This document shows, piece after piece, positions 35,664 to 53,285 of a stretch of DNA of 64,000 nt (its first letter is position 1; every line of letters begins with the position of its first letter). The stretch covers positions 14,459-78,458 of the forward strand of contig VXYT01000101.1 in assembly GCA_009845855.1 (NCBI GenBank). Direction: 5' to 3'. The notes under the pieces are model-generated. The model did not search any database. It worked only from the letters and a program-made list of their open reading frames with translations, and had not been told where the DNA came from. The translations under genes were made by a program, and so were the position numbers. The stretch is from Candidatus Palauibacter ramosifaciens. Its GTDB lineage: Bacteria; Gemmatimonadota; Gemmatimonadetes; Palauibacterales; Palauibacteraceae.

Positions 35664-36323
35664 GTGCCCCGGGCACGTTCGTGGAAGGCTCGTTCCGAGT
35701 TGGCCGCGGCCCTGTCTCCGCGACTTGCCGCCCTCTATCCGGACCTCACCGTCTCGCTGGACTGGGAGACGCCACTCCAGTTGATCGTCGCGACGGTGCT
35801 CTCGGCCCAGTGCACGGACGAGCGCGTGAACCGGGTTACGCGCGCCCTCTTCCCGGCCTATCCCGACGCCCGCGCGTACGCCGACGCGCCGCTGGAGGAG
35901 TTGCGGGAAGCCGTGCGCCCGACGGGATTCTTCAACAACAAGGCGCGCCACCTGAAGGGGCTCGGCCGCCGCCTCGTCGACGTGTACGGCGGGGAGGTCC
36001 CGGGGACGATGGAGGACCTGCTCACGCTGCCGGGCGTTGCCCGGAAGACGGCGAACGTCGTGCTTTCCAACGCGTTCGGGCTCCACGAGGGCGTGGTCGT
36101 GGACACGCACGTGAAGCGGGTCACGCACCGCCTCGGCCTCACGAACGAGGTCGATCCCCCCAAGGTGGAGAAGGACCTGATGAGGGTGCTGCCTCGGGAG
36201 GAATGGCACCCCTTCGCGTGGCGCTCGATCCTGCACGGCCGCACGGTCTGCTACGCCCGGAAACCGCGTTGCGCCGCGTGCCCGGTGGCCGATCTGTGCG
36301 CGAGCGCCGGGAAGTTCGGGTGA
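35664..36323 (+). CDS. nth: Endonuclease III
   Basis: LSAQCTD, LPGVARKTANV, VDTHV, CxxxxxxCxxCxxxxxC. Confidence 0.95.
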   Translation: MPRARSWKARSELAAALSPRLAALYPDLTVSLDWETPLQLIVATVLSAQCTDERVNRVTRALFPAYPDARAYADAPLEELREAVRPTGFFNNKARHLKGLGRRLVDVYGGEVPGTMEDLLTLPGVARKTANVVLSNAFGLHEGVVVDTHVKRVTHRLGLTNEVDPPKVEKDLMRVLPREEWHPFAWRSILHGRTVCYARKPRCAACPVADLCASAGKFG

Positions 36324-36324
36324 T

Positions 36325-37434
36325 GTGAAGGTCGCCCGCGATGCCGCCGCGCTGAAGCGGGACGTCCGCGCCGCCGCGCGGGCCGCCGGGTTCGACCAGG
36401 TGGGGTTCGCTCCTGCGGCGGCACCGGCGCACGCGGAGGCGTACGAGGCCTGGCTCGCGAGCGGTTACCACGGCGAGATGGGCTACATGGCGCGCGAAGA
36501 CGCGGTGCGCCGCCGCCTCGACCCGCGCGAGGCCCTTCCCGGCTGCCGGACGCTCATCGTAGTGAGCCTCCTCTACGGGTCGGCGCCGGCCGGCACGACG
36601 GGGCCGGGCGGGCGGCCCGTCGGCCGCGGGGATCCCGACCGGCACCGCCGGCTGCCGGTCGTCGCCCGCTACGCGCTGGGCCGCGATTACCACGACGTGT
36701 TCGAGGAGCGGCTCGACGCGCTCTCCGCCGCGATCGAAGGCCTCTCTCCCGGCGCCCGCACGCAGCGCTACGTCGACTACGGCCCCGTCCTCGAGCGGGA
36801 CCACGCACAGCGCGCGGGCCTGGGCTGGATCGGCAGGAACACGATGCTCCTTCACCCCGACCTCGGGTCCTACTTCATGCTGGGAGAGCTGCTCACGGAC
36901 CTCGAGATCGAACCCGATCCGCCGTTCGTCCACGACCGCTGCGGGACCTGCCGCCGCTGCATCGACGCCTGCCCGACGGACGCGATTCTCGATGGCCGGC
37001 TCCTCGATGCGCGCCTCTGCATCTCGTATCTCACGATCGAACTCCGGGGCTCCATCCCCGAGACGCTGCGCCCCGCGATCGGAAACCGCGTGTTCGGCTG
37101 CGACATCTGCCAGGAAGTGTGCCCTTGGAACCGGGACGCCCCCGTCCCCGCGGAGGCGCCGTTCGCGCCCCGGCCCGGCCAGCCGGTGCCGCCGGAGGAC
37201 ATGATCGCGTGGGCCGAGGAACTCGCCCCCCTCGACGCCAACGAGTTCCGGGCTCGCTACCGCGGAACGGCGTTCAGCCGCCCCGGCCGCGACGGGCTCC
37301 TCCGCAACCTGGCCGTCGGCCTCGGCAACGCCGGCGGGCTCGCCGCCCGCCCGATCCTGCGGCGCCTCGCGGAGGACCCGTCTCCGCTCGTCCGCGAGCA
37401 CGCCCGCTGGGCGCTCAACGTGCTCCACGGTTAG
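36325..37434 (+). CDS. queG: tRNA epoxyqueuosine reductase
   Basis: ARYALGRDYH, VDYGPVLER, GLGWIGRN, CGTCRRCIDACPT, CISYLTIE, GCDICQEVCPWN. Confidence 0.95.
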   Translation: MKVARDAAALKRDVRAAARAAGFDQVGFAPAAAPAHAEAYEAWLASGYHGEMGYMAREDAVRRRLDPREALPGCRTLIVVSLLYGSAPAGTTGPGGRPVGRGDPDRHRRLPVVARYALGRDYHDVFEERLDALSAAIEGLSPGARTQRYVDYGPVLERDHAQRAGLGWIGRNTMLLHPDLGSYFMLGELLTDLEIEPDPPFVHDRCGTCRRCIDACPTDAILDGRLLDARLCISYLTIELRGSIPETLRPAIGNRVFGCDICQEVCPWNRDAPVPAEAPFAPRPGQPVPPEDMIAWAEELAPLDANEFRARYRGTAFSRPGRDGLLRNLAVGLGNAGGLAARPILRRLAEDPSPLVREHARWALNVLHG

Positions 37435-42064: not shown

Positions 42065-43375
42065 ATGCCATCCGTAACCCATGCCCGCGTGTCCCGCATG
42101 AAGGGCGGGATGCGCCGGGGCATCCGGTTCTTTGCGTGGGCCGTGGCGGCCGGCGGGGCCATGGCGTCCCCGTCGCGGGCGCAGGAGCGCGACACGCTCC
42201 ACCTGGCCGACGCGGTCGCCGCGGCGCGCGGTTCCAACCCGATGCTGCGGGTCGCCCGCCTGAGGGCCGACGCTGCACGGGCACGCGTGCCGCAGATGAG
42301 CGCGCCGCCGGATCCGGTCGTCTCGTTCCGTCTCGGAAACCGTCCCCTCGACGGGTTCGGGGCGGGCGAAAGAATGACGATGAACACGCTCCAGGTGCAG
42401 CAGACGCTGCCCTGGCCCGGGAAACTCGGCTTGGCCGAGGCGCGCGCGGCGCACCTCGCGGTCGCCGAGGAGCTGGCGGTCCTCGACCACGAGGCCGCCC
42501 TCGTCCGCCGCGTGAAGGCGGTGTACTTCGAACTTGCCTTCGAGGACCGGGCGCTGGACATCATGCGCGACACGCGCGATCTCCTGCGCGAGTTCCTCGA
42601 TGTCTCCAACACGCTCTACGCCGTGGGGGCGGGCCTTCAGAACGATGTTCTGCAGGCACAGGTGGCCGTCGCCACGATGACCGAGGACATCACGGCGGCG
42701 GAACAGGCACGGCTCGCCATGGCGGCACGGCTGAACGCGCTCCTGGGGCGCGGGCCCGAACGAAACGTGGGGGCGCTCGAACTGCCCGGCACCGGCGAGC
42801 CCCTTCCGGGCGTGACGGACCTCATGGCCGTGGCGACCGAGAGACGGCCCGCGCTGCGCGCCGCCCGCGAGCGGATCCGGGCGGCGGAGTCGGCCTACGA
42901 GACCGCCCGCCGCGCCATCTACCCTGATCTGAGGCTTGGGGCCGACTACGCGCACCGACCGCGGTTCGCGGACATGCTGAGCTTCAGCGTGGGGGTCAGC
43001 GTCCCGCTGTGGGCGGGTTCCCGCCAGTTGCCCATGCGGGACGAGGCGTTCGCCCGCCAGGCCGCCGAGGAGGCCGCCGAACTCGAACTCCTGAACGAGA
43101 CCTGGGCCCGGATCGCGGAAGCGCGGGCCGAGTCCGATCGCGCCCTGCGGCTCCACGACCTCTACGCCACGTCGATCCTCCCCCAGGCGCGGGCCGCGGT
43201 CGAATCGTCCCTCTCCGCCTACCGCGTCGGTCAAGTCGATTTCATGACGCTCGTGCAGAGCGAACTCACCGTGCACCGCTACGAGATCGAACGCGTACGG
43301 CTCACCGCCGCCTATCACTCGGCCGTCGCGGAGATCGAAGCCCTGCTGGGGGGTGGAACGGAGGTGATCCGATGA
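42065..43375 (+). CDS. TolC-family outer membrane factor of the Cus-type efflux system
   Basis: PPDP, QTLPWPGKL, VSVPLW, AYRVGQVDF; precedes cusBA. Confidence 0.88.
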   Translation: MPSVTHARVSRMKGGMRRGIRFFAWAVAAGGAMASPSRAQERDTLHLADAVAAARGSNPMLRVARLRADAARARVPQMSAPPDPVVSFRLGNRPLDGFGAGERMTMNTLQVQQTLPWPGKLGLAEARAAHLAVAEELAVLDHEAALVRRVKAVYFELAFEDRALDIMRDTRDLLREFLDVSNTLYAVGAGLQNDVLQAQVAVATMTEDITAAEQARLAMAARLNALLGRGPERNVGALELPGTGEPLPGVTDLMAVATERRPALRAARERIRAAESAYETARRAIYPDLRLGADYAHRPRFADMLSFSVGVSVPLWAGSRQLPMRDEAFARQAAEEAAELELLNETWARIAEARAESDRALRLHDLYATSILPQARAAVESSLSAYRVGQVDFMTLVQSELTVHRYEIERVRLTAAYHSAVAEIEALLGGGTEVIR

Positions 43376-44598
43376 AACGATTCAATCTCTTTTCGTCCAC
43401 GCGCGCCCGGGTCGCGCTCGTTCCCGTCGCGGCCGTGCACTGGGCGTGCGGCGGCGGCTCCGAGACGGCGGAGATGCCCGGGGTGGAAGGCGAGCACGCC
43501 GCGCACATGCCCGCCATGGCCGCTCCCCCGGAAACCGACACGATGCCGGCGCTCGGGCGCGGCCTCGTCCAGCTCACATCGGAACAGGAGCAGGCGCTCG
43601 GCGTCACCTACACGGCCGTGGAGCGGGTCTCCGCGGTGCGCGAGATCCGAACCGTGGGCCGCATCGACGCCCCCGAGGGCAACATCGCCGACATCACGCC
43701 CAAGACCGACGGCTTCGTCGAGGAACTCCTGGTCGCGACCACCGGCGAGGCCGTTCGGCGGGGCCAGCCGCTGCTCACGATCTACAGCCCCGCGCTCGTC
43801 GCAGCCCAGGAAGAACTGCTGACGGCGCGCCGGCTCGCCGCGCAGGTCGATACGGTCGCCACCGAGGCGTGGTCGAACGCGCAGTCCATGCTCGAGGCGA
43901 GCCGCCGCCGGCTCGCCTGGTGGGACATCACCGACGAGCAGATCGAGCGGCTGGAGCAGACGGGCGAAGTCACGAAGACGATGCAGCTCGTCGCCCCCGT
44001 GAGCGGGATCGTCCTCGAGAAGGACGTCGTCGAGGGACAGCGGGTGACGCCGGGCACGCGCCTGTACCGCATCGCCGACCTCTCGACCGTGTGGGTGGAG
44101 GGAGAGGTGTTCGAGCGGGACCTCCAGTTCGTCGACGTCGGTTCGCAGGCCCACATCGAGGTCACCGCCTATCCGGGCGAACACATGATGGGGGCGGTGA
44201 GCTTCGTCAATCCTACCGTGGAGATCGCAAGCCGCACGAACCGCGTCCGGGTCTCCGTGCCGAACCCCGGCCTCCGCTTCAAGCCGGGGATGTTCGCCAC
44301 CGTCTTCTTCGAGGTCGCCGCGATCCAGGACGACATCGCGGTGCCGCTGGAGGCGGTCGTCGTCACCGGAGAACGGAACCTCGTCTTCGTGCGCGACGAG
44401 GGGGGGCTGCTCATGCCGCATGAGGTCGTGCTGGGGGCGCGGGCCGGGGATCTGGTCCAGATCCTGAGCGGGCTCGCGGAAGGGGAGACGATCGTCGCCT
44501 CCGCCAACTTCCTCATCGATGCCGAGTCCCGTCTCGGCGCGACCGGCGGGGGCATGCCCGGGATGCAGCACGCGGGCCACGGCGAGGAGGGGCGATGA
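43372..44598 (+). CDS. cusB: Heavy-metal RND periplasmic adaptor (CusB-like)
   Basis: GFVEEL, IYSPALVAAQEEL, RIADLSTVWV, KPGMF, SANFLIDAES; Met/His-rich ends. Confidence 0.88.
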   Translation: MKRFNLFSSTRARVALVPVAAVHWACGGGSETAEMPGVEGEHAAHMPAMAAPPETDTMPALGRGLVQLTSEQEQALGVTYTAVERVSAVREIRTVGRIDAPEGNIADITPKTDGFVEELLVATTGEAVRRGQPLLTIYSPALVAAQEELLTARRLAAQVDTVATEAWSNAQSMLEASRRRLAWWDITDEQIERLEQTGEVTKTMQLVAPVSGIVLEKDVVEGQRVTPGTRLYRIADLSTVWVEGEVFERDLQFVDVGSQAHIEVTAYPGEHMMGAVSFVNPTVEIASRTNRVRVSVPNPGLRFKPGMFATVFFEVAAIQDDIAVPLEAVVVTGERNLVFVRDEGGLLMPHEVVLGARAGDLVQILSGLAEGETIVASANFLIDAESRLGATGGGMPGMQHAGHGEEGR

Positions 44599-47500
44599 TC
44601 GAGCGCGTCATCGCCTGGTCGATCCGGAACCGGTTTCTTGTCCTCCTCGGGACCGCCGTCATCCTCGGCGCGGGGCTGTGGTCCGTGCGTACGACGCCGC
44701 TCGACGCCATTCCCGATCTGTCGGATGTCCAGGTCATCGTCCAGACCGATTTTGCGGAACAGGCCCCGCAGATCGTCGAAGATCAGGTCACGTACCCGAT
44801 CGCATCGGAGATGCTGAAGGTGCCGGGGGCACGCGTGGTGCGCGCGTTCTCCTTCTTCGGGCTCAGCCTCGTGTACGTGATCTTCGAGGACGGCACGGAC
44901 ATCTACTGGGCCCGATCCCGGGTGCTCGAATACCTGAACGGGATCCGGCGGCAGCTGCCGGAGAACGTCGAACCGGTGCTCGGCCCGGACGCGACGGGCG
45001 TGGGCTGGGTCTACGAGTACACTCTCGAGTCGGACAGCCTGAACCTCGCGGAACTGCGCACGCTCCAGGACTGGTACCTCCGCTATCAACTGACGGCCGT
45101 GCCGGGGGTGGCCGAAGTCGCGAGCCTGGGCGGATTCGTCAAGCAGTACCAGGTGGAGGTGAATCCGGAGCGGCTGCGAGCGTTCGACATCCCCGTGACG
45201 CGCGTGTCCCGGGCGATCGGGGACCACAACATCGACATCGGGGCGCGCGTGCTCGAGATGGGGGGGCGCGAATACATGATCCGCGGCCTCGGCTACCTGC
45301 GGGGCACGCTCGACATCGAGAACGTGGCCGTGGGGTCGACGCCGAACGGCACGCCGATCCGGGTGGCCGATGTGGCGACCGTGCAGGAAGGCCCGGCCCC
45401 CCGGCGCGGCGTCGCGGATCTGAACGGCCGCGGCGAGGTCGTGGCCGGCATCGTCATCATGCGCTTCGGCTCGGACGCGCTCGAGACGATCGAGCGGGTG
45501 AAGGAGCGGCTGGACGAGATCAACGCGGGGCTTCCGGCCGGCACGCGGCTGCGGCCGGCCTACGACCGCAGCGACCTCATTCACCGGGCGATCGACACGC
45601 TCCGCGAGAAGCTTGTGGAGGAATCGCTCATCGTCGCCGCCGTGGCGCTGGTGTTCCTCCTCCACTTCCGCTCGGCGCTCGTCGCGATCGTGACGCTGCC
45701 CCTCGGCATCCTCATCTCGTTCATCGTCATGCGGTGGATCGGCGTGAACGCCAACATCATGAGCCTCGGGGGGATCGCGATCGCGATCGGAGCGATGGTG
45801 GACGCGGCCATCGTCATGGTCGAGAACATGCACAAGCATCTCGAGCGCGCCGCCCCCGGCACGTCGCGCTGGGACGTGGTCCTCGCGAGCGCGAAACAGG
45901 TGGGTCCGCCCCTCTTCTTCTCACTCCTCATCATCACGTTCAGCTTCCTTCCGGTGTTCGCGCTCGAGCAGCAGGAGGGCCGGCTGTTCAGACCCCTCGC
46001 GTTCACCAAGACCTTCGCCATGGCGGGGTCCGCGTTCCTCGCGATCACCCTGGTTCCCGTGCTGATGGGATATCTCGTGCGCGGACGGATCCGTCGGGAG
46101 CGGGCGAACCCGGTGAATCGCATCATGCGCTGGCTCTACCGACCCTTCCTGGGCTTCGCGCTCCGCCGCCCATGGCTCGTGGTCGCCACGGCCGCAGGGC
46201 TGCTGGGCGCCACGGTTCTGCCGTGGCAGCGGCTCGGCAGCGAGTTCATGCCGCCGCTTCACGAAGGGTCGATCCTCTTCATGCCGACCACCGTGCCGGG
46301 GGCGTCGATCGCCCAGGCCCGGGAGATCATGCGATACCAGGACAGCGTTCTCGCGACCTTCCCCGAGGTGGAGAGCGTCCTGGGGAAGGCGGGACGCGCG
46401 GAAACCGCCACGGATCCCGCCCCGCTCGACATGTTCGAGACGACGATCACCCTGCGGCCCCGGGCGGAGTGGCGTCCCGGGGTCACCTACGCCGGGCTGC
46501 TGTCGCAGATGGACGAGGCCGTCGCCCTCCCCGGCGTGACGAACGCGTGGACGATGCCGATCAAGGGGCGCATCGACATGCTCGCCACGGGCGTCCGCAC
46601 GCCGGTGGGGATCAAGATCTTCGGCCCGGATCTCGACACGCTGCAGGCGCTCGGGGAGGAGGCCGAGCGCATCGTGCGCGAGATCCCGGGAACGCGCAGC
46701 GCGTTCGCGGAGCGCGGCGTCTCCGGGTACTACGTCGACATCGACGTCGACCGGCCGGAGGCGGCGCGCTACGGCCTCAACGTCGGCGACGTGCACAACG
46801 CGATCATGGCGACGGTCGGCGGGATGAACGCGACGGTCACCGTGGAGGGGCGAGAGCGATACGCGGTGAACGTCCGCTATCCGCGCGAGCTGCGCGACGA
46901 CCTGCAGAACCTGCGCGAGGTGCTGGTGCCCGTGCCCGATGGGACGCAGATCCCGCTCGGCCAGGTGGCCCGCGTCGCGGCCGTTCAGGGGCCCATGGCC
47001 GTGAAAACCGAGAACGCCTTTCCCGTGACGACGATCTTCGTCGACATCGAGGGCGTCGACATCGGGAGTTACGTGGAGGCGGCCCGGCGCGTCGTCGCCG
47101 CCCAGCTCGAACTCCCGAGCGGGTACTCTCTCGTATGGAGCGGGCAGTACGAGTTCATGCAGCGGGTGCAGGAGCGCCTGCGCGTCGTGATTCCGGTGAC
47201 GCTGGGAATCATCTTCCTTCTCCTCTACCTCAACTTCCGGGGCGTGGCCGAGTCGCTGATCGTCATGCTCGCCCTGCCGTTCTCGCTCGTGGGCGGCATC
47301 TGGTTCCTGTGGCTCCTGGGCTACAACACGAGCGTCGCGGTCTGGGTCGGGTTCATCGCGCTCGCCGGCGTGGCGGCGGAGACCGGAGTGGTAATGCTGA
47401 TCTACCTGGACGAGGCGTTCCGCCGTCGTCGCCGCGAGGGCCGCATCCGGACCGCCGCGGATGTGGCCGCTGCGGTTCGCGAAGGGGCGCTGGAGCGGCT

Positions 47501-47732
47501 GCGTCCGGTCGTGATGACGGTGATGGCGATCACGGCCGGGCTGATGCCGATCCTGTGGAGTTCCGGCACGGGCGCGGACGTGATGAAGCGCATCGCGTCG
47601 CCTATGGTCGGGGGAATGATCTCGGCGACGGTACTCACGCTGCTCGTGATCCCGGCCATCTACCTGCTGTGGCGCCGATGGCAACTCCGCCGCATCGCGG
47701 ACGCGCCGCTACGGCCCGGTTCCCGGGCGTAA
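44595..47732 (+). CDS. cusA: Cu(I)/Ag(I) RND efflux pump
   Basis: LDAIPDLSDVQVIV, GPDATGVGW, AIGAMVDAAIV; three-Met site FMPTT / LDMFETT / WTMPIK. Confidence 0.95.
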   Translation: MIERVIAWSIRNRFLVLLGTAVILGAGLWSVRTTPLDAIPDLSDVQVIVQTDFAEQAPQIVEDQVTYPIASEMLKVPGARVVRAFSFFGLSLVYVIFEDGTDIYWARSRVLEYLNGIRRQLPENVEPVLGPDATGVGWVYEYTLESDSLNLAELRTLQDWYLRYQLTAVPGVAEVASLGGFVKQYQVEVNPERLRAFDIPVTRVSRAIGDHNIDIGARVLEMGGREYMIRGLGYLRGTLDIENVAVGSTPNGTPIRVADVATVQEGPAPRRGVADLNGRGEVVAGIVIMRFGSDALETIERVKERLDEINAGLPAGTRLRPAYDRSDLIHRAIDTLREKLVEESLIVAAVALVFLLHFRSALVAIVTLPLGILISFIVMRWIGVNANIMSLGGIAIAIGAMVDAAIVMVENMHKHLERAAPGTSRWDVVLASAKQVGPPLFFSLLIITFSFLPVFALEQQEGRLFRPLAFTKTFAMAGSAFLAITLVPVLMGYLVRGRIRRERANPVNRIMRWLYRPFLGFALRRPWLVVATAAGLLGATVLPWQRLGSEFMPPLHEGSILFMPTTVPGASIAQAREIMRYQDSVLATFPEVESVLGKAGRAETATDPAPLDMFETTITLRPRAEWRPGVTYAGLLSQMDEAVALPGVTNAWTMPIKGRIDMLATGVRTPVGIKIFGPDLDTLQALGEEAERIVREIPGTRSAFAERGVSGYYVDIDVDRPEAARYGLNVGDVHNAIMATVGGMNATVTVEGRERYAVNVRYPRELRDDLQNLREVLVPVPDGTQIPLGQVARVAAVQGPMAVKTENAFPVTTIFVDIEGVDIGSYVEAARRVVAAQLELPSGYSLVWSGQYEFMQRVQERLRVVIPVTLGIIFLLLYLNFRGVAESLIVMLALPFSLVGGIWFLWLLGYNTSVAVWVGFIALAGVAAETGVVMLIYLDEAFRRRRREGRIRTAADVAAAVREGALERLRPVVMTVMAITAGLMPILWSSGTGADVMKRIASPMVGGMISATVLTLLVIPAIYLLWRRWQLRRIADAPLRPGSRA

Positions 47733-47754: not shown

Positions 47755-48246
47755 TCAGTCGCCCGGCGGAGGGCCGAGCGGGCTCGGCTCGCAGTCCTCG
47801 GTCTCGCGGGTGTAGGCGATGCTGGAGATCTTCCAGCCGTCGCTCGTGTGCACGAGGCTGACCGCGTCGATGCCGCAGTGGCTGAACTGGCCGTCCACGT
47901 GGAAGTCGTACGGCGTCCACACGACGGCGATCGGACCCTCGATCATCACGTGCGGGTCCCACATCCGTTCGAGCAGCGCGGGGCCCGGCTGACCGATCGA
48001 GGCGGCGAAGTCGGCGCCGGTGCTCTCCCGGACCTGGACGCCATCCGGCGTCTCCGCCGTGGCCACGAAGGTGGCGCCCTCGGTCAGGAGGTTGCGGATC
48101 GCGTCGCCGTCGCGGGCGGCCATGGCGTCGAAGAGGGCCTGCACGGTCGCGACCGCCCCGGCTTCGGCGTCATCCTGTGCGTCGGCAACCGCGGGCGCGA
48201 CGAGGATCGCGGCGGTGAGCAGCAAGGTCACTCGGAACTTTCTCAT
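47755..48246 (-). CDS. Secreted NTF2-like (SnoaL/DUF4440-like) protein
   Basis: Signal peptide; AVVWTPYDF..FSHCG.DA.SL...GWKI. Confidence 0.8.
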   Translation of the reverse strand: MRKFRVTLLLTAAILVAPAVADAQDDAEAGAVATVQALFDAMAARDGDAIRNLLTEGATFVATAETPDGVQVRESTGADFAASIGQPGPALLERMWDPHVMIEGPIAVVWTPYDFHVDGQFSHCGIDAVSLVHTSDGWKISSIAYTRETEDCEPSPLGPPPGD

Positions 48247-48312
48247 GGGATTCTCCCGATTCCTGTGGTCGGTCGTCCTTCGTCCGGTTGGTCGTCCATG
48301 GCGTCCGGACAC

Positions 48313-50103
48313 TCAGTACGCGGTCGTGCGAAACACCGGCTGAAAGAGTCGGGTGCGGTGTGCGCAGACCGGATCCGCCGGGCACGCCGCGCAGTCCGGT
48401 TCCGTCATCTCGGGGCAGCGCGTCCGGTTCTGAAAGAAGAACCAGTCCACACCCCCCATGGAGCGCCCGCTCAGACGCCGGATCTCCCCGACCGCCTCGT
48501 AGCAGGCGGCGCGCACGGCCTCCTCCACTTCGTCGCTCACAACCTCCCGCCTGGCGAGCTTCGCGGCCAGCGTCTCGTCGTCCACCGATACGACGCCGAG
48601 CCGGAGGCAACTGCGCTGGCAGTGGTAGTCGACGATGGGCGGCACGTCTTCCCCCTCCCCGAATCGCAGGAAGCGCTCCGGCCGCTGGCTGAGGATCGCC
48701 GCGAGCAGGGCGGACTTCTTCCGCCACGGATCCTCCCTGTATCCGCCGACCGCATCGAGGCGCGCGAGAAAGCGCGCGAGGGGCCGCTCCGCGGCGTTCG
48801 CTTCGGCCAGGAGCGATGCTGGGGTCAGTCCGAGACCCCGCATGGCGCGACCGTAGGCCCGCGCACACGCCGGGTGGAGGGGGCCGGCCGGGAGCGGGTT
48901 GCGTCCTCCGTCGGCTCGCAGTCGGCGATCGAACTTCGCGTCGTCGAGAGCGGCCTGTCCAACGGGAGTGAGTTCGTCCGGTGCCTCGCGGGTCCAGCGC
49001 AGGTAGGCGGCCCACAGGTAGTCGCTCCCCTTAAGGGCCCGGCCCCCCAGCGAGGCGATCATGGGTGCCTCGTAGCGGGCTGCGCGCTCCTGCCAGAAAC
49101 CGAATTGCTGCACGGTGCCGGCGAAGAAGAAATCGAGCGCCGTCGGATCGCCGGGTTCGGGGAAATCCGGGCCGGTGAAGTCGAACGCCGCCGCCTCCGG
49201 AGCCGAGGCGATGACGCCGGCCACGCGCCGGATCCGATCCGCGTCGAGGCGGACCCGAGCGTCCCGCGGCGGCGCCGCCGGCGGGCTGTCCGAGAGGAGC
49301 GGCGCGGGACCGATGCCCGTCACCGTGTGCGCGGCGCAGGCCGTCGCCACGCGCGCGGCGATGGCGGGATGGTCCCCGGCCGCGAGTCGGGCCAGCGCCG
49401 TCCCGCAGAAGGTGTCCCCGGCACCCGTCGGATCCACCTCCTCGACCTCGGGGGCGGGGACGTCGATCGCGTGATCGCCCAGGACGGCACGAGCCCCGCG
49501 CGGCCCCCGGGTGACGAAGAAGGCGCGCCCCGGCGCGACCGCCACCTCATCGAGCGACCCGAACAGGAGACCGGCCTCCTCCTCGTTGCAGAAGAAGTAG
49601 TGGGACGCCTCCACCACCCGCGCGACGATCTCACGGTGCGCGCGGATCCCCGGCGCATAGGTCCCGCACCCGACGCGCACGCCCGCCGCGGACAGCCGGC
49701 GCGCGAACCCCAACTGCAGCTCCGGGTCGAGGAGGGGGACGACGTACGCGAAGGCCCCCGGCCCCGCGTCCGGGATGTCGCCGTAGCGGATGTCCCCCTC
49801 GGAACCGCGCACCGCCCGGCGGTACTCGGTCCGGCCGTCGGGGAAGTATTCGATCTCGAAGTGGGGGAGCGCGGCGGGCGGCACCGGAGGTCCCCGCCAG
49901 TCGAGGAGGCGGTCCGCCGGCTCGAGCTCCGCCGGCATGGGATCGGGCCGCGGCGCGACGACCGTGACTTCGGCCCCGGCCCGCTGTGCGGCGAGTGCTG
50001 TGTAGAGTCCCGCGCCCCCGGCGGACCGCACGGAGCGGCCCCCGAGGTGCAGGAGGTCCAGAGAGGGGCTCCCGACCACGAGGAGCCGTGGCCGGGCGCT
50101 CAC
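48313..50103 (-). CDS. PfkB-family kinase fused to a queuosine-salvage (DUF2419/Qng1)-like domain with C-terminal 4-Cys motif
   Basis: N-half: AGGAG, NEEEA, VTRGPRGA, DPTGAGDTF. C-half: QFGFW, KKSALL, IVDYH.QR..LRLG, EEAVRAA, VDWFFF, then CX7CX2CX5C. Confidence 0.8.
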   Translation of the reverse strand: MSARPRLLVVGSPSLDLLHLGGRSVRSAGGAGLYTALAAQRAGAEVTVVAPRPDPMPAELEPADRLLDWRGPPVPPAALPHFEIEYFPDGRTEYRRAVRGSEGDIRYGDIPDAGPGAFAYVVPLLDPELQLGFARRLSAAGVRVGCGTYAPGIRAHREIVARVVEASHYFFCNEEEAGLLFGSLDEVAVAPGRAFFVTRGPRGARAVLGDHAIDVPAPEVEEVDPTGAGDTFCGTALARLAAGDHPAIAARVATACAAHTVTGIGPAPLLSDSPPAAPPRDARVRLDADRIRRVAGVIASAPEAAAFDFTGPDFPEPGDPTALDFFFAGTVQQFGFWQERAARYEAPMIASLGGRALKGSDYLWAAYLRWTREAPDELTPVGQAALDDAKFDRRLRADGGRNPLPAGPLHPACARAYGRAMRGLGLTPASLLAEANAAERPLARFLARLDAVGGYREDPWRKKSALLAAILSQRPERFLRFGEGEDVPPIVDYHCQRSCLRLGVVSVDDETLAAKLARREVVSDEVEEAVRAACYEAVGEIRRLSGRSMGGVDWFFFQNRTRCPEMTEPDCAACPADPVCAHRTRLFQPVFRTTAY

Positions 50104-50113
50104 GTCGCCGGCG

Positions 50114-51490
50114 TCAGTCGCCCTGCTGCTGATCCGTCGTGATGCGCCCGGCCGCGCCGGCGGGCCCGTTGTCCCAGTCCTGGGCGCTGGAGATGTTCGG
50201 TACGCCCCAGTCGTCGCCGTTCCACCCCTGGAAGCCCTCCATCCGGAAGGTCCAGAGGCCCGTCGTCATGTCGCTCACGACGATGAGCCCGTCCTCATTT
50301 CGGATGTCGACCCCGAACGTGCCGTTGAACACGGGCGTCCGATCCACGTTCGGCGGCCCCAGATAGGTGTCGTAGTGGCCCACCGTGATCGGGTTTTCCG
50401 GGTCCATCATGTTGAACACGACGAGCCCGTCCAGGTAGCCGGACACGAACACGAGCGGCCAGCGCACCTCATGGTTGTGGACGAGGTTCTTCCAGTTCGC
50501 CGTCCACGCCGCGATCGGGCGGTTGATGGCCGACACCTCGCCGTTCAGCCCCGGCCTGAGATCGAAGATCCGGAGCGGCGCGTACTGATACTCCGTCTCA
50601 GCGATCGCGAAGTTGCCGTCCGGCGTGGGCGTGAACGTATGCCCGCTGCGAACCCCGGAGACTCCGACGATCTGCGTCAGAAGTTCGGGATTCCCGAGGT
50701 CCGTCACGTCGTAGATGTAGTAGCCGCCGGTGCCGCCGCCATAGAAGCGGTCCGTCCCCGTTTCCGGGTGATAGCCGAGATAGAAATCGTGGTATCCGCG
50801 CCGCCGGTTCCCCGTCATCCCCTGATCCGGCACCGGGATCTGCGCCACCATCTCATCGCCCCGCCCCTCGACGAGCGCGCCGAGGTCGTAGACGGCCGCG
50901 TACGGTCCCGAGACCGTGGCGACGAGGTAGACGTTCATGTTGGAGTGCTTGTAGATGAAGATGTTGTGGAAGCCGCCCGGAAGGTCGGGTTCCCTGATGC
51001 GGGCCACCTCACGCACCGTGGAGGCGTCCGGCAGTCCCGTGACGTCGAGGACGACCGCCCCCATGTCGGAGTCCGGGCCTCCCTGGCCGAACTGGAGCGA
51101 TTGCACGACGTAGTAGCGGTCGCCCCACTTGAAGTGCTTCACGTCCATCCCGCCGGTGCGCTGGTGGAGGTCCTGGTCCTCGATCCGCCACTCGTAGAGC
51201 ACTTCGGGGTGCTCCGGGTCCTCGATCGAGACGATATCCAGCCCCTTCGGACCGACCGGCCCGTACTGCATGCGCGCCACGTACGCGTACGGCCGGTGCA
51301 TCTCCTGCTCGATGTCCATGTCTGCGATGCTGAGCCGCGGGCCGAGCGGGACGTGTCCGAGCACTTCCATGTTCCGGCTGCCGCGCTCCACGACATCGAT
51401 CGCCTGGGCGCCGAGGGCCGTCGGGGCGACGAAGCCCGCTCCGAGCGCGACGACCGCGAAGAGCGTCAGGGTCCGATTTCCAACCTTCAT
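50114..51490 (-). CDS. Secreted LVIVD repeat beta-propeller protein
   Basis: Signal peptide; IVSIEDPEHP, VLDVTGLP, IYDVTDLGNP; GFHN, GYHD, VHNHE. Confidence 0.8.
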   Translation of the reverse strand: MKVGNRTLTLFAVVALGAGFVAPTALGAQAIDVVERGSRNMEVLGHVPLGPRLSIADMDIEQEMHRPYAYVARMQYGPVGPKGLDIVSIEDPEHPEVLYEWRIEDQDLHQRTGGMDVKHFKWGDRYYVVQSLQFGQGGPDSDMGAVVLDVTGLPDASTVREVARIREPDLPGGFHNIFIYKHSNMNVYLVATVSGPYAAVYDLGALVEGRGDEMVAQIPVPDQGMTGNRRRGYHDFYLGYHPETGTDRFYGGGTGGYYIYDVTDLGNPELLTQIVGVSGVRSGHTFTPTPDGNFAIAETEYQYAPLRIFDLRPGLNGEVSAINRPIAAWTANWKNLVHNHEVRWPLVFVSGYLDGLVVFNMMDPENPITVGHYDTYLGPPNVDRTPVFNGTFGVDIRNEDGLIVVSDMTTGLWTFRMEGFQGWNGDDWGVPNISSAQDWDNGPAGAAGRITTDQQQGD

Positions 51491-51551
51491 TCTTTCCTCC
51501 GTTTTCAAGCGGCGCGCCCCGCGGCGAGCCGGGATCGGCGCGGCGGTGCGG

Positions 51552-53285
51552 CTAGCCGGGATCCACCGTGAACACCATGGACATCCCGGCCTCCAGATGC
51601 TCCGCAATATGGCAGTGCGCCATCCAGCGGCCAGAGTTGGAGGCCTCGAGCAGGATGTCGAACGTCGACCCGACCGGGATCACGACCGTGTCCTTCCAGG
51701 CGAGATTGTCCGACGGCACCCCGTCCCTGGAAAGGATCAGGAAGCGTTGCCCGTGGAAGTGGATCGGGTGCTGCATGGGGTGGAACGAGCGGCGCTGGTT
51801 GTGGATGCGGATCTTGCGGACGGCCCCCTCCGTGAAGCGCCAGTCGATGTCCCCGTTCTCCTTCCCCGTGTGTGCGTCGCGCATGATCCAGATCAGGTTC
51901 TCCGACGTCGACAGGTAGTTCATCATCGGCATTGCATCCGTCCATTCGACGGGCGGGAAGTAGAGGGTGTCGATCGCCATCACCGCGACGATGTCGCTGG
52001 GCAGGTCGCCCACGCGTGCCGTGAGTTCGAGTTCGTGGTCGATGGGCCGACCGAACTCGGCGCGGTAGCGGTCGATGTCCTCGATCACGTCGGCGTGTTC
52101 GCGCAGGGTGGAGAACGCTTCCCCGTGGTCCTCCGCCACCGGTTCGTCGAGGACGGTGACGATCCCGAGCGTGTCCGTCTGCGGATAGAAGCGACCGTTG
52201 AAGTGGTCGATGGCCTGGATCGGGTTGAGGAGCGCGTACGTGCCGGGCTCGTCGAAACGCGCGTCGACGATGTACCGCTGGGCGGGGGCGAGGACGATGT
52301 TGGAGACGAAGCTCTCGCGCTCGAACTTGCTCACGTCGGCGCCCACCAGCTTCAGCTCCGCGCCCTCGAGGACGAGGTTGAAGGTGCGCGTGTTCGCGAC
52401 GTTCGTGAGATAGAGCCGGCGCACCTCGCCGCGGCGGACCGTCGCCTCCCAGCGGGGCTCGCCGTTCACGAGCAACTGGTTCCCGAAGCGGCCCATCAGC
52501 GTCTGGATGGCGGCTTCGCGTCCCCAGGGGAAGAGTCCGCCCTCGTCGACGAGCAGGTCGTCGAGCATGAGGAAGTCCTCTCCGTTCGCCGGGCCGTAGT
52601 AATCCGCGGCGGGTGCGTCGACGAGCATGTTCCCGTACAGGCCGAGGTCCTGCTGGATGTCCTCGCGGTGGTGCGGGTGGTACCAGTACAGGCCGGCGTC
52701 GGGAAAATGGACCCGGTACATGAACGACTCGCCCGGTTCGACCGGGTCCTGGGTGACGCCGGGGACGCCGTCGAACTCGTTCTCAAGTCGCAGACCGTGC
52801 CAATGGACCGCCGTGGGCAGGTCGATGTGGTTCGTGAACAGGACGATGATCTCCGCGCCCTGCGGGACGCGGATGAGGGGCCCGGGGTACTGCCCGTTGA
52901 AGCCGTACATCGTGAAGGTCCGCATCCCGATCGTGCGCCGGACGAACCCGGCCTTGAGGCGGAGCGTGTCGCCGTCGGCCATCTCCACGACCTCGCGGAA
53001 GACCGCCTCCGGGAGCATCGCGGGGTCGTGGCCGGCGTCGGGCAGGTACGGAGTCACTCCGGGGACGGCGCCCATCAGGCCCGGAAGCATCATCGGCATC
53101 GGGATCGGCTGCGGCGGCATGCGCCAAACGGCCCCCATGCTGTCCGTCGCCATCATGTGGCCCGCGTGCTGCTGCCCCGATGCCGGTGCGCCGGTCAGCC
53201 ACAACAGCGCCTGGAAGGCCGCTCCGGCGGCAACGCGACGGGCCATCCGCCCGCCCGGTCTGCTCTTCCTACCGCGCGGCATCAC
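51552..53285 (-). CDS. Three-domain multicopper oxidase with Met-rich N-terminus
   Basis: VHWHG, YWYHPH, HPIHFHG, WMAHCHIAEHLEAGM. Start may be 53246. Confidence 0.92.
   Translation of the reverse strand: MMPRGRKSRPGGRMARRVAAGAAFQALLWLTGAPASGQQHAGHMMATDSMGAVWRMPPQPIPMPMMLPGLMGAVPGVTPYLPDAGHDPAMLPEAVFREVVEMADGDTLRLKAGFVRRTIGMRTFTMYGFNGQYPGPLIRVPQGAEIIVLFTNHIDLPTAVHWHGLRLENEFDGVPGVTQDPVEPGESFMYRVHFPDAGLYWYHPHHREDIQQDLGLYGNMLVDAPAADYYGPANGEDFLMLDDLLVDEGGLFPWGREAAIQTLMGRFGNQLLVNGEPRWEATVRRGEVRRLYLTNVANTRTFNLVLEGAELKLVGADVSKFERESFVSNIVLAPAQRYIVDARFDEPGTYALLNPIQAIDHFNGRFYPQTDTLGIVTVLDEPVAEDHGEAFSTLREHADVIEDIDRYRAEFGRPIDHELELTARVGDLPSDIVAVMAIDTLYFPPVEWTDAMPMMNYLSTSENLIWIMRDAHTGKENGDIDWRFTEGAVRKIRIHNQRRSFHPMQHPIHFHGQRFLILSRDGVPSDNLAWKDTVVIPVGSTFDILLEASNSGRWMAHCHIAEHLEAGMSMVFTVDPG

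Follow-up and report, generated by a model that had tools for sequence, protein, structure and literature searches.

The window analyzed here, a 64,000-nt stretch of the genome of Candidatus Palauibacter ramosifaciens (GenBank assembly GCA_009845855.1, contig VXYT01000101.1, positions 14,459 to 78,458), encodes on its reverse strand a protein that joins a PfkB-family kinase to a homologue of the nucleotide N-glycosidase Qng1 (DUF2419) and closes with a loop of four cysteines. We propose that this fusion is probably a two-step enzyme, which would convert a nucleoside into its monophosphate (NMP) and then the NMP into free base and ribose-5-phosphate, the base being guanine-like and probably not queuine. 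An earlier note, made from the sequence alone, had recognized the fusion and had seen in it a candidate enzyme for the salvage of queuosine (Q) or another modified nucleoside; the fusion is borne out below, the queuosine assignment is not, and a different modified nucleoside would be compatible with the results.

Architecture of the fusion protein

The open reading frame (ORF) begins with GTG, encodes 596 amino acids and is organized as follows, in window coordinates that include the stop codon.

48313-50103, reverse strand: whole ORF, PfkB kinase, Qng1-like glycosidase and Cys4 tail, 596 aa plus stop (ORF call, relatives)
49288-50103, reverse strand: PfkB-family kinase domain, residues 1-272 (PF00294, profile match to 3kd6, fold)
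50014-50019, reverse strand: GG dipeptide, G29 and G30, invariant among kinase domains of the fused family (conservation)
49576-49587, reverse strand: NEEE (NxxE motif), residues 173-176, with N173 and E176 invariant (conservation)
49414-49434, reverse strand: DPTGAGD, residues 224-230, the invariant anion-hole and catalytic-base motif of PfkB kinases (motif, conservation)
49255-49287, reverse strand: Pro/Ala-rich linker, residues 273-283 (sequence and full-length model)
48418-49254, reverse strand: predicted nucleotide N-glycosidase core of Qng1/DUF2419 fold, residues 284-562 (profile, AlphaFold fold, HHalign)
49021-49032, reverse strand: KGSD, residues 358-361, family signature in place of the D-G-Y-W pocket wall of Qng1 (conservation)
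48715-48720, reverse strand: K462-K463, of which K462 aligns with the helix-hairpin-helix (HhH) lysine K199 of Qng1 (profile alignment)
48622-48633, reverse strand: VDYH, residues 491-494; D492 aligns with D231 (catalytic Asp), Y493 with Y232, and H494 stands in place of K233 (profile alignment)
48445-48447, reverse strand: D553, aligned with Qng1 D298 (profile alignment)
48364-48417, reverse strand: CPEMTEPDCAACPADPVC, the Cys4 loop, C-X7-C-X2-C-X5-C, a probable [4Fe-4S] site (invariant cysteines, likeness to Nth and MutY)
48316-48363, reverse strand: C-terminal tail, AHRTRLFQPVFRTTAY, with Tyr596 as last residue (terminal Tyr conserved)

Every motif quoted in the earlier note is present in this ORF: DPTGAGD at residues 224-230, QFGFW at 333-337, KKSALL at 462-467, IVDYHCQRSCLRLG at 490-503, EEAVRAA at 527-533, VDWFF at 552-556, and the cysteines as C563-X7-C571-X2-C574-X5-C580. 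A model of the full-length protein is confident overall (predicted local distance difference test, pLDDT, 94.0; predicted template modelling score, pTM, 0.93), which suggests that the kinase and glycosidase domains are held in a fixed mutual arrangement.

Residues 593-596 (window positions 48316-48327), which include the terminal Tyr, have pLDDT values below 50 in the full-length model, unlike the domain-only model described below, where the last residue block averages 93. This difference could mean that the tail moves, or that its position is set by the kinase domain or by a bound ligand.

Homology and fold of the C-terminal domain

By family profile and predicted fold, the C-terminal domain is a homologue of Qng1/DUF2419, a relationship visible solely through the profiles of its relatives and the fold, and not in the window sequence alone. 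As a single sequence the domain matched no solved structure in the PDB, and the Pfam family Q_salvage (PF10343) returned no match in a six-frame search of the host genome. An exhaustive phmmer search recovered 353 cluster representatives at E<=1e-3, either fused (~600 aa) or stand-alone (~313-340 aa), and 52 stand-alone members plus the window domain make up the profile that we call A1. Against the PDB, A1 aligned over positions 3-293 of its 320 with the Qng1/DUF2419 structures 7uk3, 7u07 and 7ugk at E 1e-13, trailed by ROS1 (E 0.0078) and by endonuclease III (EndoIII; E 0.2-0.8), the latter in the Cys tail only. This alignment pairs GFW with FCFW, KK with YKRAQ, VDYH with ADYK and VDWFFF with VDWLLW, the very motif correspondence with Qng1 that the earlier note had drawn. 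Q_salvage itself was matched at E<=0.01 by 40 of the 53 A1 members and at 25 bits or more by nine of ten fused homologues, these ten having been picked for already bearing a precomputed match. HHalign against four canonical Qng1 sequences from fusion-bearing genomes gave 98.9% probability, an E value of 1.4e-17 and 21% identity.

The fold tells the same story. An AlphaFold (AF2) model of the domain derived from A1 (pLDDT 96.7, pTM 0.93) has Qng1/QNG1 structures as all ten of its best PDB matches, with template modelling (TM) scores of 0.75-0.78 and E values of 6e-12 to 2e-10; a second tier made of MutY, MUTYH and EndoIII follows at TM 0.38-0.49, apart from one outlier at 0.30. GFW is followed in the model by a beta-hairpin block, and further strands are formed by domain residues 4-6 and 225-227; these insertions correspond to the Qng1-specific ones blocking the DNA cleft (compared with PMC9881137). 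Taken together, the Pfam match of the kinase, the A1 profile, HHalign and the fold support a complete PfkB domain fused to a domain of Qng1/DUF2419 fold.

Residues kept and replaced relative to Qng1

Residue roles known for the Sphaerobacter enzyme (StQng1), as given in PMC9881137, were transferred through the A1-PDB profile alignment, and conservation was counted in 146 members filtered to <80% identity (90 fused, 56 stand-alone). Kept are the catalytic Asp D231 (D492 here; D in 143 of the 146), the HhH lysine K199 (K462; K in 141), the ribose-stacking F75 (F in 141) and Y232 (Y493; Y in 139), and D298 (D553; D in 141), which in Qng1 hydrogen-bonds the guanine-like edge of the base. The base sandwich of I203 and W302 is represented by Leu in 140 and by Phe or Trp in 140 members, the position of N72 stays polar (Q in 117, N in 13, D in 6, E in 4), and Y323, the last residue of StQng1, whose carboxylate belongs to the active site, has its equivalent in Y596, with a terminal Tyr in 141.

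Replaced are the walls of the cyclopentenediol pocket, Y93 by Ser in 135 of the 146 members and W94 by Asp in 127; the acids that relay a proton from the side-chain amine of Q, D69 by Thr in 100 (never Asp) and D207 by Ile in 97; and the phosphate contact K233, by His (H494) in 143. In the KGSD signature, 132 members have the Lys, 143 the Gly, 135 the Ser and 127 the Asp. Near-invariant residues new to the family are K358, R497, R501, R560 and FQP587-589, and the basic residues at or near the aligned phosphate site are H494 (143 of 146), R560 (142), K358 (132), R497 (145) and R501 (146). The canonical Qng1 paralogues present in some of the same genomes keep all of the queuine-specific residues, with DGYW at the pocket wall, and have no Cys motif. 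At the mapped active-site positions the fused members are far more uniform than the stand-alone ones, which suggests that the fused form acts on one conserved substrate.

The kinase domain and the four-cysteine loop

The PfkB domain is complete in sequence, and its catalytic motifs are intact. PF00294 matches the fusion protein at E 4.9e-21 (75.8 bits, cut-off 25.8), and 31 kinase domains taken from diverse loci all share the GG, NxxE and DPTGAGD motifs, together with Asp16. Established roles in PfkB kinases belong to the GG dipeptide, to NxxE and to DxxGAGD, with its catalytic Asp. Compared with structures of PfkB kinases, the fold scores target-normalised TM values of 0.61-0.75, with 3kd6 from Chlorobium tepidum best at 0.75.

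The four cysteines of the loop are Cys in 146, 145, 146 and 146 of the 146 members and, on this pattern, are not there by chance. They had been likened in the earlier note to the [4Fe-4S] loop of EndoIII, and the comparison holds: the loops of the host's own Nth and MutY read C-X6-C-X2-C-X5-C against C-X7-C-X2-C-X5-C in the fusion, and P-x-C-A-A-C-P-x4-C-A is common to the fusion loop and host Nth. Of 193 family sequences, 189 yielded a readable motif, with a first spacer of 7 residues in 184 of these 189 loops. Basic residues of the EndoIII/MutY iron-sulfur (Fe-S) loop take part in DNA binding. The family loop carries on average 0.36 K/R and 3.48 D/E, as opposed to 3-4 K/R and 0-1 D/E in host Nth and MutY. 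PF10576 (EndIII_4Fe-2S) matches Nth, MutY and a third protein in the host, and one of 53 relatives of the fusion (E 0.0062). Most likely, the Cys4 loop is an inherited structural Fe-S loop that is devoid of its DNA contacts, the cluster itself being predicted from the cysteines.

Distribution and gene neighborhoods of the family

Full-length relatives share 82-91% identity with the fusion within Candidatus Palauibacter and 52-71% in other phyla, and close ones occur in other Gemmatimonadota and in Acidobacteriota. When each species is represented by a single genome, a relative is encoded in 392 stretches. The best 80 of these 392, on which the counts of genome loci were made, come from Gemmatimonadota, Acidobacteriota, Chloroflexota, Woeseiaceae and other Gammaproteobacteria, Polyangiaceae, Spirochaetota and Caldithrix, and nearly all are metagenome-assembled genomes. 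The kinase motif lies within the same ORF in 75 of the 80 (one member is clearly stand-alone) and in 62 of 79 ORFs from 80 metagenome loci; the fused form is the rule in the family. Five annotated loci of stand-alone forms showed no split kinase, no Q genes and no pattern, their neighbors being TPR/NB-ARC proteins, a lipid-A acyltransferase with RtcB, a phosphoribosyltransferase, CinA and a GNAT protein. In a single metagenome case (L130, 457-966, forward strand), a gene with a phosphoribosyltransferase domain abuts the start of a stand-alone member, which puts an enzyme of base salvage beside the glycosidase.

Neighboring genes were clustered over 142 loci from outside Palauibacter (L024-L165), in 131 of which the family gene itself was found, and one representative was annotated per cluster. 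The following neighbors were found.

Udp/DeoD-like phosphorylase: 11 of 131 loci
UshA-like 5'-nucleotidase: 11 of 131 loci
NupC-type concentrative nucleoside transporter (CNT), same strand and adjacent, mainly in Acidobacteriota: 8 of 131 loci
TRZ/ATZ-family amidohydrolase, which in L095 starts 10 nt past the fusion stop: 7 of 131 loci
YjjG-family nucleotidase, over the NCBIfam cut-off: 7 of 131 loci
XdhA- and XdhC-like dehydrogenase, in Chloroflexota: 6 of 131 loci
Second PfkB kinase: 7 of 131 loci
TonB-dependent receptors: 6 of 131 loci

The TRZ/ATZ amidohydrolases are a family of nucleobase and nucleoside deaminases. At least one of the phosphorylase, 5'-nucleotidase, CNT transporter, amidohydrolase and dehydrogenase occurs in 32 of the 131 loci, many of which have short flanks. 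These contexts favor a role in general nucleoside or purine scavenging or catabolism.

Two further observations concern these neighborhoods. A conserved protein of 190 aa (L079, 5580-6149, forward strand), with homologues in L044, L048, L082, L088, L090 and L066, has no Pfam or NCBIfam match. In the gammaproteobacterial cluster the genes are ordered as 5'-nucleotidase, zinc alcohol dehydrogenase, aldehyde dehydrogenase, the 190-aa protein, phosphorylase and fusion.

Proposed reaction

From the architecture, homology, conservation, gene contexts and phyletic pattern observed, we predict as follows what the two domains do and in which sequence, what metal cluster the protein holds and what substrate it acts on. 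The fusion would be a cytoplasmic enzyme whose PfkB domain phosphorylates the 5'-OH of a purine nucleoside with ATP and whose Qng1-fold domain next splits the resulting nucleoside 5'-monophosphate at its N-glycosidic bond by hydrolysis, yielding base and ribose-5-phosphate. Release of the base would involve Asp492 of the HhH motif, Lys462, Phe336 and Tyr493 stacking on the ribose, and the carboxylate of Tyr596. The Cys4 loop would hold a structural [4Fe-4S] cluster derived from glycosylases of the EndoIII/MutY type and anchor the C-terminal tail, the basic residues that contact DNA having given way to acidic ones. The base is expected to be guanine-like because Asp553, the equivalent of Qng1 D298, is kept, and queuine is unlikely because the residues of the queuine pocket are replaced. 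Physiologically, the enzyme would serve in the scavenging or catabolism, possibly the clean-up, of an imported nucleoside.

Several results weigh against this proposal. The C-terminal 316 residues, searched alone, match no Pfam or NCBIfam family, Q_salvage and HhH-GPD included, even at E<=10. On the side of the kinase, fold comparison leaves ribokinase, 2-keto-3-deoxygluconate (KDG) kinase and nucleoside kinase nearly equal and does not fix the substrate, and the 'nucleoside kinase' label of 3kd6 is the title given by its depositors. PF10576, a model of 17 positions, searched against the host genome at E<=10, leaves the fusion tail unmatched, and the Cys4 site could bind zinc instead of a [4Fe-4S] cluster. 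The kept Asp that reads the base suits 7-deazaguanines as well as guanine. Gene context is sparse and lineage-specific: 99 of the 131 loci, many with short flanks, have none of the five neighbors counted above, and the gene order of the window lineage is uninformative on nucleosides.

Queuosine and other 7-deazaguanines as candidate substrates

Four independent lines of evidence oppose queuosine as the substrate. The first is the host itself, whose genome (94.75% complete) has tgt adjoining queA, plus queC, queF and queG, and gave no match to canonical Qng1; judging by this gene set, Q is made de novo in the host, with preQ1 as the base inserted.

The second line is the gene-presence profile of 40 other fusion-bearing genomes and 14 controls, the latter searched for TGT. 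TGT is in 40 of 40 and 14 of 14, respectively, and is uninformative. QueA is in 35 of the 40 fusion-bearing genomes, and QueF exceeds its cut-off in 21. Most carriers of the family are organisms that insert preQ1 and have no need for queuine, and the profile against queA and queF, part of a comparison that the earlier note had suggested, turns out to oppose queuine salvage.

The third line is the coexistence of the fusion with a canonical full-length Qng1 (~290 bits) in five of the 40 genomes, all of them Chloroflexota. Four of these five lack any QueF match and the fifth has a sub-threshold one, and three lack QueA. The canonical gene lies within ~1.5 kb of tgt in four of the five. The same search located the fusion in three of the genomes, each time on a different contig from the canonical Qng1, and the loci of four of the five (L041, L046, L047, L050) place the fusion near a xanthine-dehydrogenase-like gene. 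Genomes that look like true queuine salvagers hence have a separate canonical Qng1 beside tgt in addition to the fusion.

In the four Chloroflexota genomes with the pair, qng1 stands directly before tgt (L172, 5898-8762, 292 bits; L173, 4082-6929; L174, 6576-8818; L175, 5406-8375), and in three of them (G010, G011, G020) QueA and QueF were not found. The TGT match in these Chloroflexota falls into two parts (model positions 2-91 and ~91-351) of a single open frame, as if TGT carried an insertion. A kinase was looked for in the qng1-tgt clusters, as a lead to the Q kinase, and none was found; the neighbors there are an integrase, a DNA methylase, a HEAT-repeat protein, a LytR-family protein and a flavoprotein.

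The fourth line is the loci of the family, 160 in number (1.7 Mb), none of which contains tgt, queA, queC or queF. The gene queG is found near the fusion only in Gemmatimonadota, where synteny is shared and the genes are convergent, and in one Acidobacteriota locus. The distance of about 11 kb between fusion and queG stated in the earlier note is correct (10.9 kb), and the linkage that it implied is not, given the lineage synteny and the convergent orientation. We rejected linkage to queG as a candidate: lineage synteny plus one locus is about what chance would give for ~100 independent loci and five Q genes, by a rough estimate. With the queuine-pocket residues replaced, Q made by the host and canonical Qng1 coexisting elsewhere, the notion that the fusion acts on queuosine and contains the missing Q kinase is not supported, and the label of queuosine salvage is a tempting over-annotation that should not be given to the fusion proteins.

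The main rival for the substrate is a 7-deazaguanine other than Q. In its broad form, this alternative holds that the fusion salvages 7-deazaguanine nucleosides (queuosine, preQ0 or preQ1 nucleosides, archaeosine) and that the base is reused via QueF, TGT and QueA; we regard it as somewhat unlikely. A dedicated route would make sense in that ordinary purine nucleoside phosphorylases do not readily cleave 7-deazapurine nucleosides. Among the residues kept are the base-edge Asp and those that stack, along with the polar character of the N72 position, and the 35 genomes of 40 with QueA insert preQ1, of which the ~14 without a QueF above cut-off would gain from preQ1 salvage. Qng1, the sole characterized homologue, is specific for queuosine-5'-monophosphate (Q-5'MP; PMC9881137), and the transporter beside an Acidobacteriota 'qng1', which may or may not belong to the present subfamily, carried preQ0 and preQ1, not Q (PMC11130926). 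However, the family has other residues in place of Y93 and W94 of the cyclopentenediol pocket and of the acids facing the Q amine (D69, D207), all of which the canonical paralogues keep, the true queuine-salvage genomes have their separate Qng1-tgt pair, and the sole Q gene in the 160 loci is queG, which is explained by synteny in one phylum and one other locus. The neighbors, moreover, are general nucleoside and purine genes.

A broader, joint reading, which we consider unlikely, would combine the 7-deazaguanine-nucleoside route with an Fe-S family that is an intermediate between EndoIII and Qng1 and with a PfkB class for the missing Q kinase. If it were true, compounds released from phage DNA or from tRNA in the environment (preQ0 or preQ1 nucleosides, archaeosine, derivatives of Q) would be phosphorylated, deglycosylated and fed to a TGT of the preQ1 type; the family would be a surviving iron-sulfur intermediate between DNA glycosylases of the EndoIII type and Qng1; and PfkB-type nucleoside kinases would be the class in which to search for the missing eukaryotic queuosine kinase. 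The kinase making Q-5'MP, which the earlier note gave as unidentified, is still called unknown in PMC9881137 and PMC12207525 (2025).

Order of the reactions and possible polymeric substrates

The main mechanistic rival to phosphorylation before hydrolysis is the reverse order, in which the Qng1-like domain would hydrolyse the nucleoside and the PfkB domain, as a ribokinase, would capture the released ribose as ribose-5-phosphate, with the same net reaction. The earlier note had allowed for such recycling of ribose, which is the less likely role for the kinase; as a whole we hold the reverse order to be quite unlikely. Ribokinases are among the top fold matches of the kinase, and the whole protein, while far under every NCBIfam equivalog cut-off, has ribokinase (TIGR02152) as its best match, at 46.5 bits with a cut-off of 299.65. 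Qng1 prefers the 5'-monophosphate, yet StQng1 turns over the nucleoside too, the preference being just 1.7-fold (PMC9881137). On the other hand, the profile of the 31 kinase domains finds 3kd6 as its best PDB match over the full length at E 1e-19, with the next at 1e-13 or weaker and ribokinases at ~1e-11. The sequence G-x-Y-T after the GG motif is invariant in the family and present in 3kd6 by profile alignment, where E. coli ribokinase has its ribose-binding Lys-x-x-Asn. Basic residues are also kept or added around the aligned phosphate site of the glycosidase domain. These features argue for the order that we propose, nucleoside to NMP to base.

That the C-terminal domain instead removes bases from polymeric DNA or RNA, as an HhH Fe-S enzyme would be expected to do, and is joined to an unrelated or regulatory kinase, is extremely improbable: the EndoIII-like Cys4 loop, the second fold tier of MutY, MUTYH and EndoIII and the weak ROS1 match speak for it, whereas the TM scores of 0.75-0.78 to Qng1 against 0.38-0.49 to DNA glycosylases (the outlier aside), the modelled Qng1-type insertions that fill the DNA cleft (PMC9881137), the loss of basic residues from the Fe-S loop, the kept device of the terminal Tyr carboxylate and the lack of any Pfam match to HhH-GPD (PF00730) all speak against it.

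The locus in the window

Three further genes of the window were considered as context.

50114-51607, reverse strand: upstream gene, 10 nt from the fusion start, secreted-looking, a homologue of which weakly matches 'choice-of-anchor B' (context only)
47755-48312, reverse strand: downstream small SnoaL/DUF4440-like protein (context only)
36367-37419, forward strand: queG (epoxyqueuosine reductase), convergent with the fusion and 10.9 kb away (TIGR00276, 344 bits, cut-off 200)

In the window lineage the order is multicopper oxidase (by homologue), secreted choice-of-anchor-B-like protein, fusion (after a 10-nt gap) and SnoaL-like protein, an arrangement conserved in Gemmatimonadota only. A 577-aa ORF upstream (51552-53285, reverse strand) occupies the position that the multicopper oxidase has in Palauibacter relatives (annotated on locus L008). 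A scan for promoters and terminators at the locus gave no signal exceeding shuffled background, and an antisense ORF of 764 aa at the fusion locus was rejected as a gene, being an artefact of high GC content.

Two large ORFs (43009-47732, forward strand) have, from their translations, the look of a CusB/CusA-type efflux pair of the resistance-nodulation-division (RND) class. The CusB/CusA-like ORFs sit between the fusion and queG, two genes that are separated by no more than ~5 kb in other Palauibacter genomes; because of this shorter gap, the RND-like ORFs may represent a metal-resistance segment that was inserted here. An EndoIII-type Fe-S loop, C-X6-C-X2-C-X5-C (36219-36320, forward strand; PF10576, 28.9 bits), ends a 220-aa ORF, and as this loop-bearing ORF is directly before queG, host nth and queG appear to be adjacent.

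Comparison with known systems

In literature searches that went by titles, the opening of abstracts and selected passages, we found no published description of a kinase-Qng1 fusion or of an Fe-S Qng1, although the supplements of PMC9881137 and PMC11130926 might show the subfamily. Members of the family, present in at least 392 species-level genomes of several phyla, are annotated merely as "carbohydrate kinase". To the recognition of the fusion, the present analysis adds its coexistence with canonical Qng1-tgt, the QueA/QueF profile, the nucleoside and purine neighborhoods, and the charge reversal of the Fe-S loop.

The closest known system is Qng1/QNG1 (PF10343; 7u07, 7uk3, 7u91, 7ugk). The fusion shares with it the fold, the HhH Asp and Lys, the ribose-stacking Phe and Tyr, the base-edge Asp, the aliphatic/aromatic sandwich around the base and a Tyr as the very last residue. 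It differs in sequence (~17% identity in fold alignments, 21% in the profile-profile alignment), in the invariant Cys4 loop added before the tail, in its usual fusion to a kinase, and in having Ser/Asp for Y93/W94, Thr for D69, Ile for D207 and His for K233. To our knowledge, no HhH-fold enzyme other than Qng1 has so far been found to use a free nucleotide, and for Qng1 just one substrate is known. If the proposed reaction is correct, the HhH nucleotide-glycosidase fold would prove to have been adapted to a second nucleotide.

With the [4Fe-4S] glycosylases EndoIII and MutY the family shares the two-lobe HhH fold and a C-terminal four-Cys loop of the same inner spacing, with the local pattern P-x-C-[AG]-A-C-P-x4-C seen in host Nth and MutY. 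In contrast, the first spacer of the family is 7 residues instead of 6, the loop is acidic instead of basic and escapes PF10576 in the search of the host genome, insertions of the Qng1 type fill the DNA cleft, and a 16-residue tail after the loop provides the terminal Tyr. The fold would thereby be shown able to keep the Fe-S loop of DNA glycosylases, a plausible evolutionary link from DNA repair to nucleotide salvage.

The kinase domain resembles PfkB nucleoside kinases (3kd6; MjNK of M. jannaschii, 2c49; BthNK of Burkholderia, 3b1n) and ribokinase in fold and in the GG, NxxE and DPTGAGD motifs, and differs from them in falling under all NCBIfam equivalog cut-offs, in being shorter (~272 aa) and in being joined to a glycosidase. 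Such covalent coupling would independently support the logic of phosphorylating first and then removing the base that has been proposed for eukaryotic queuosine salvage.

Finally, AMP nucleosidase Amn, PpnN and the LOG family are nucleotide N-ribohydrolases that convert NMP and water into base and ribose-5-phosphate. Their chemistry is the same as that predicted for the fusion and their folds are unrelated to it, and we know of no ribohydrolase of the Amn, PpnN or LOG type that is fused to the kinase making its substrate.

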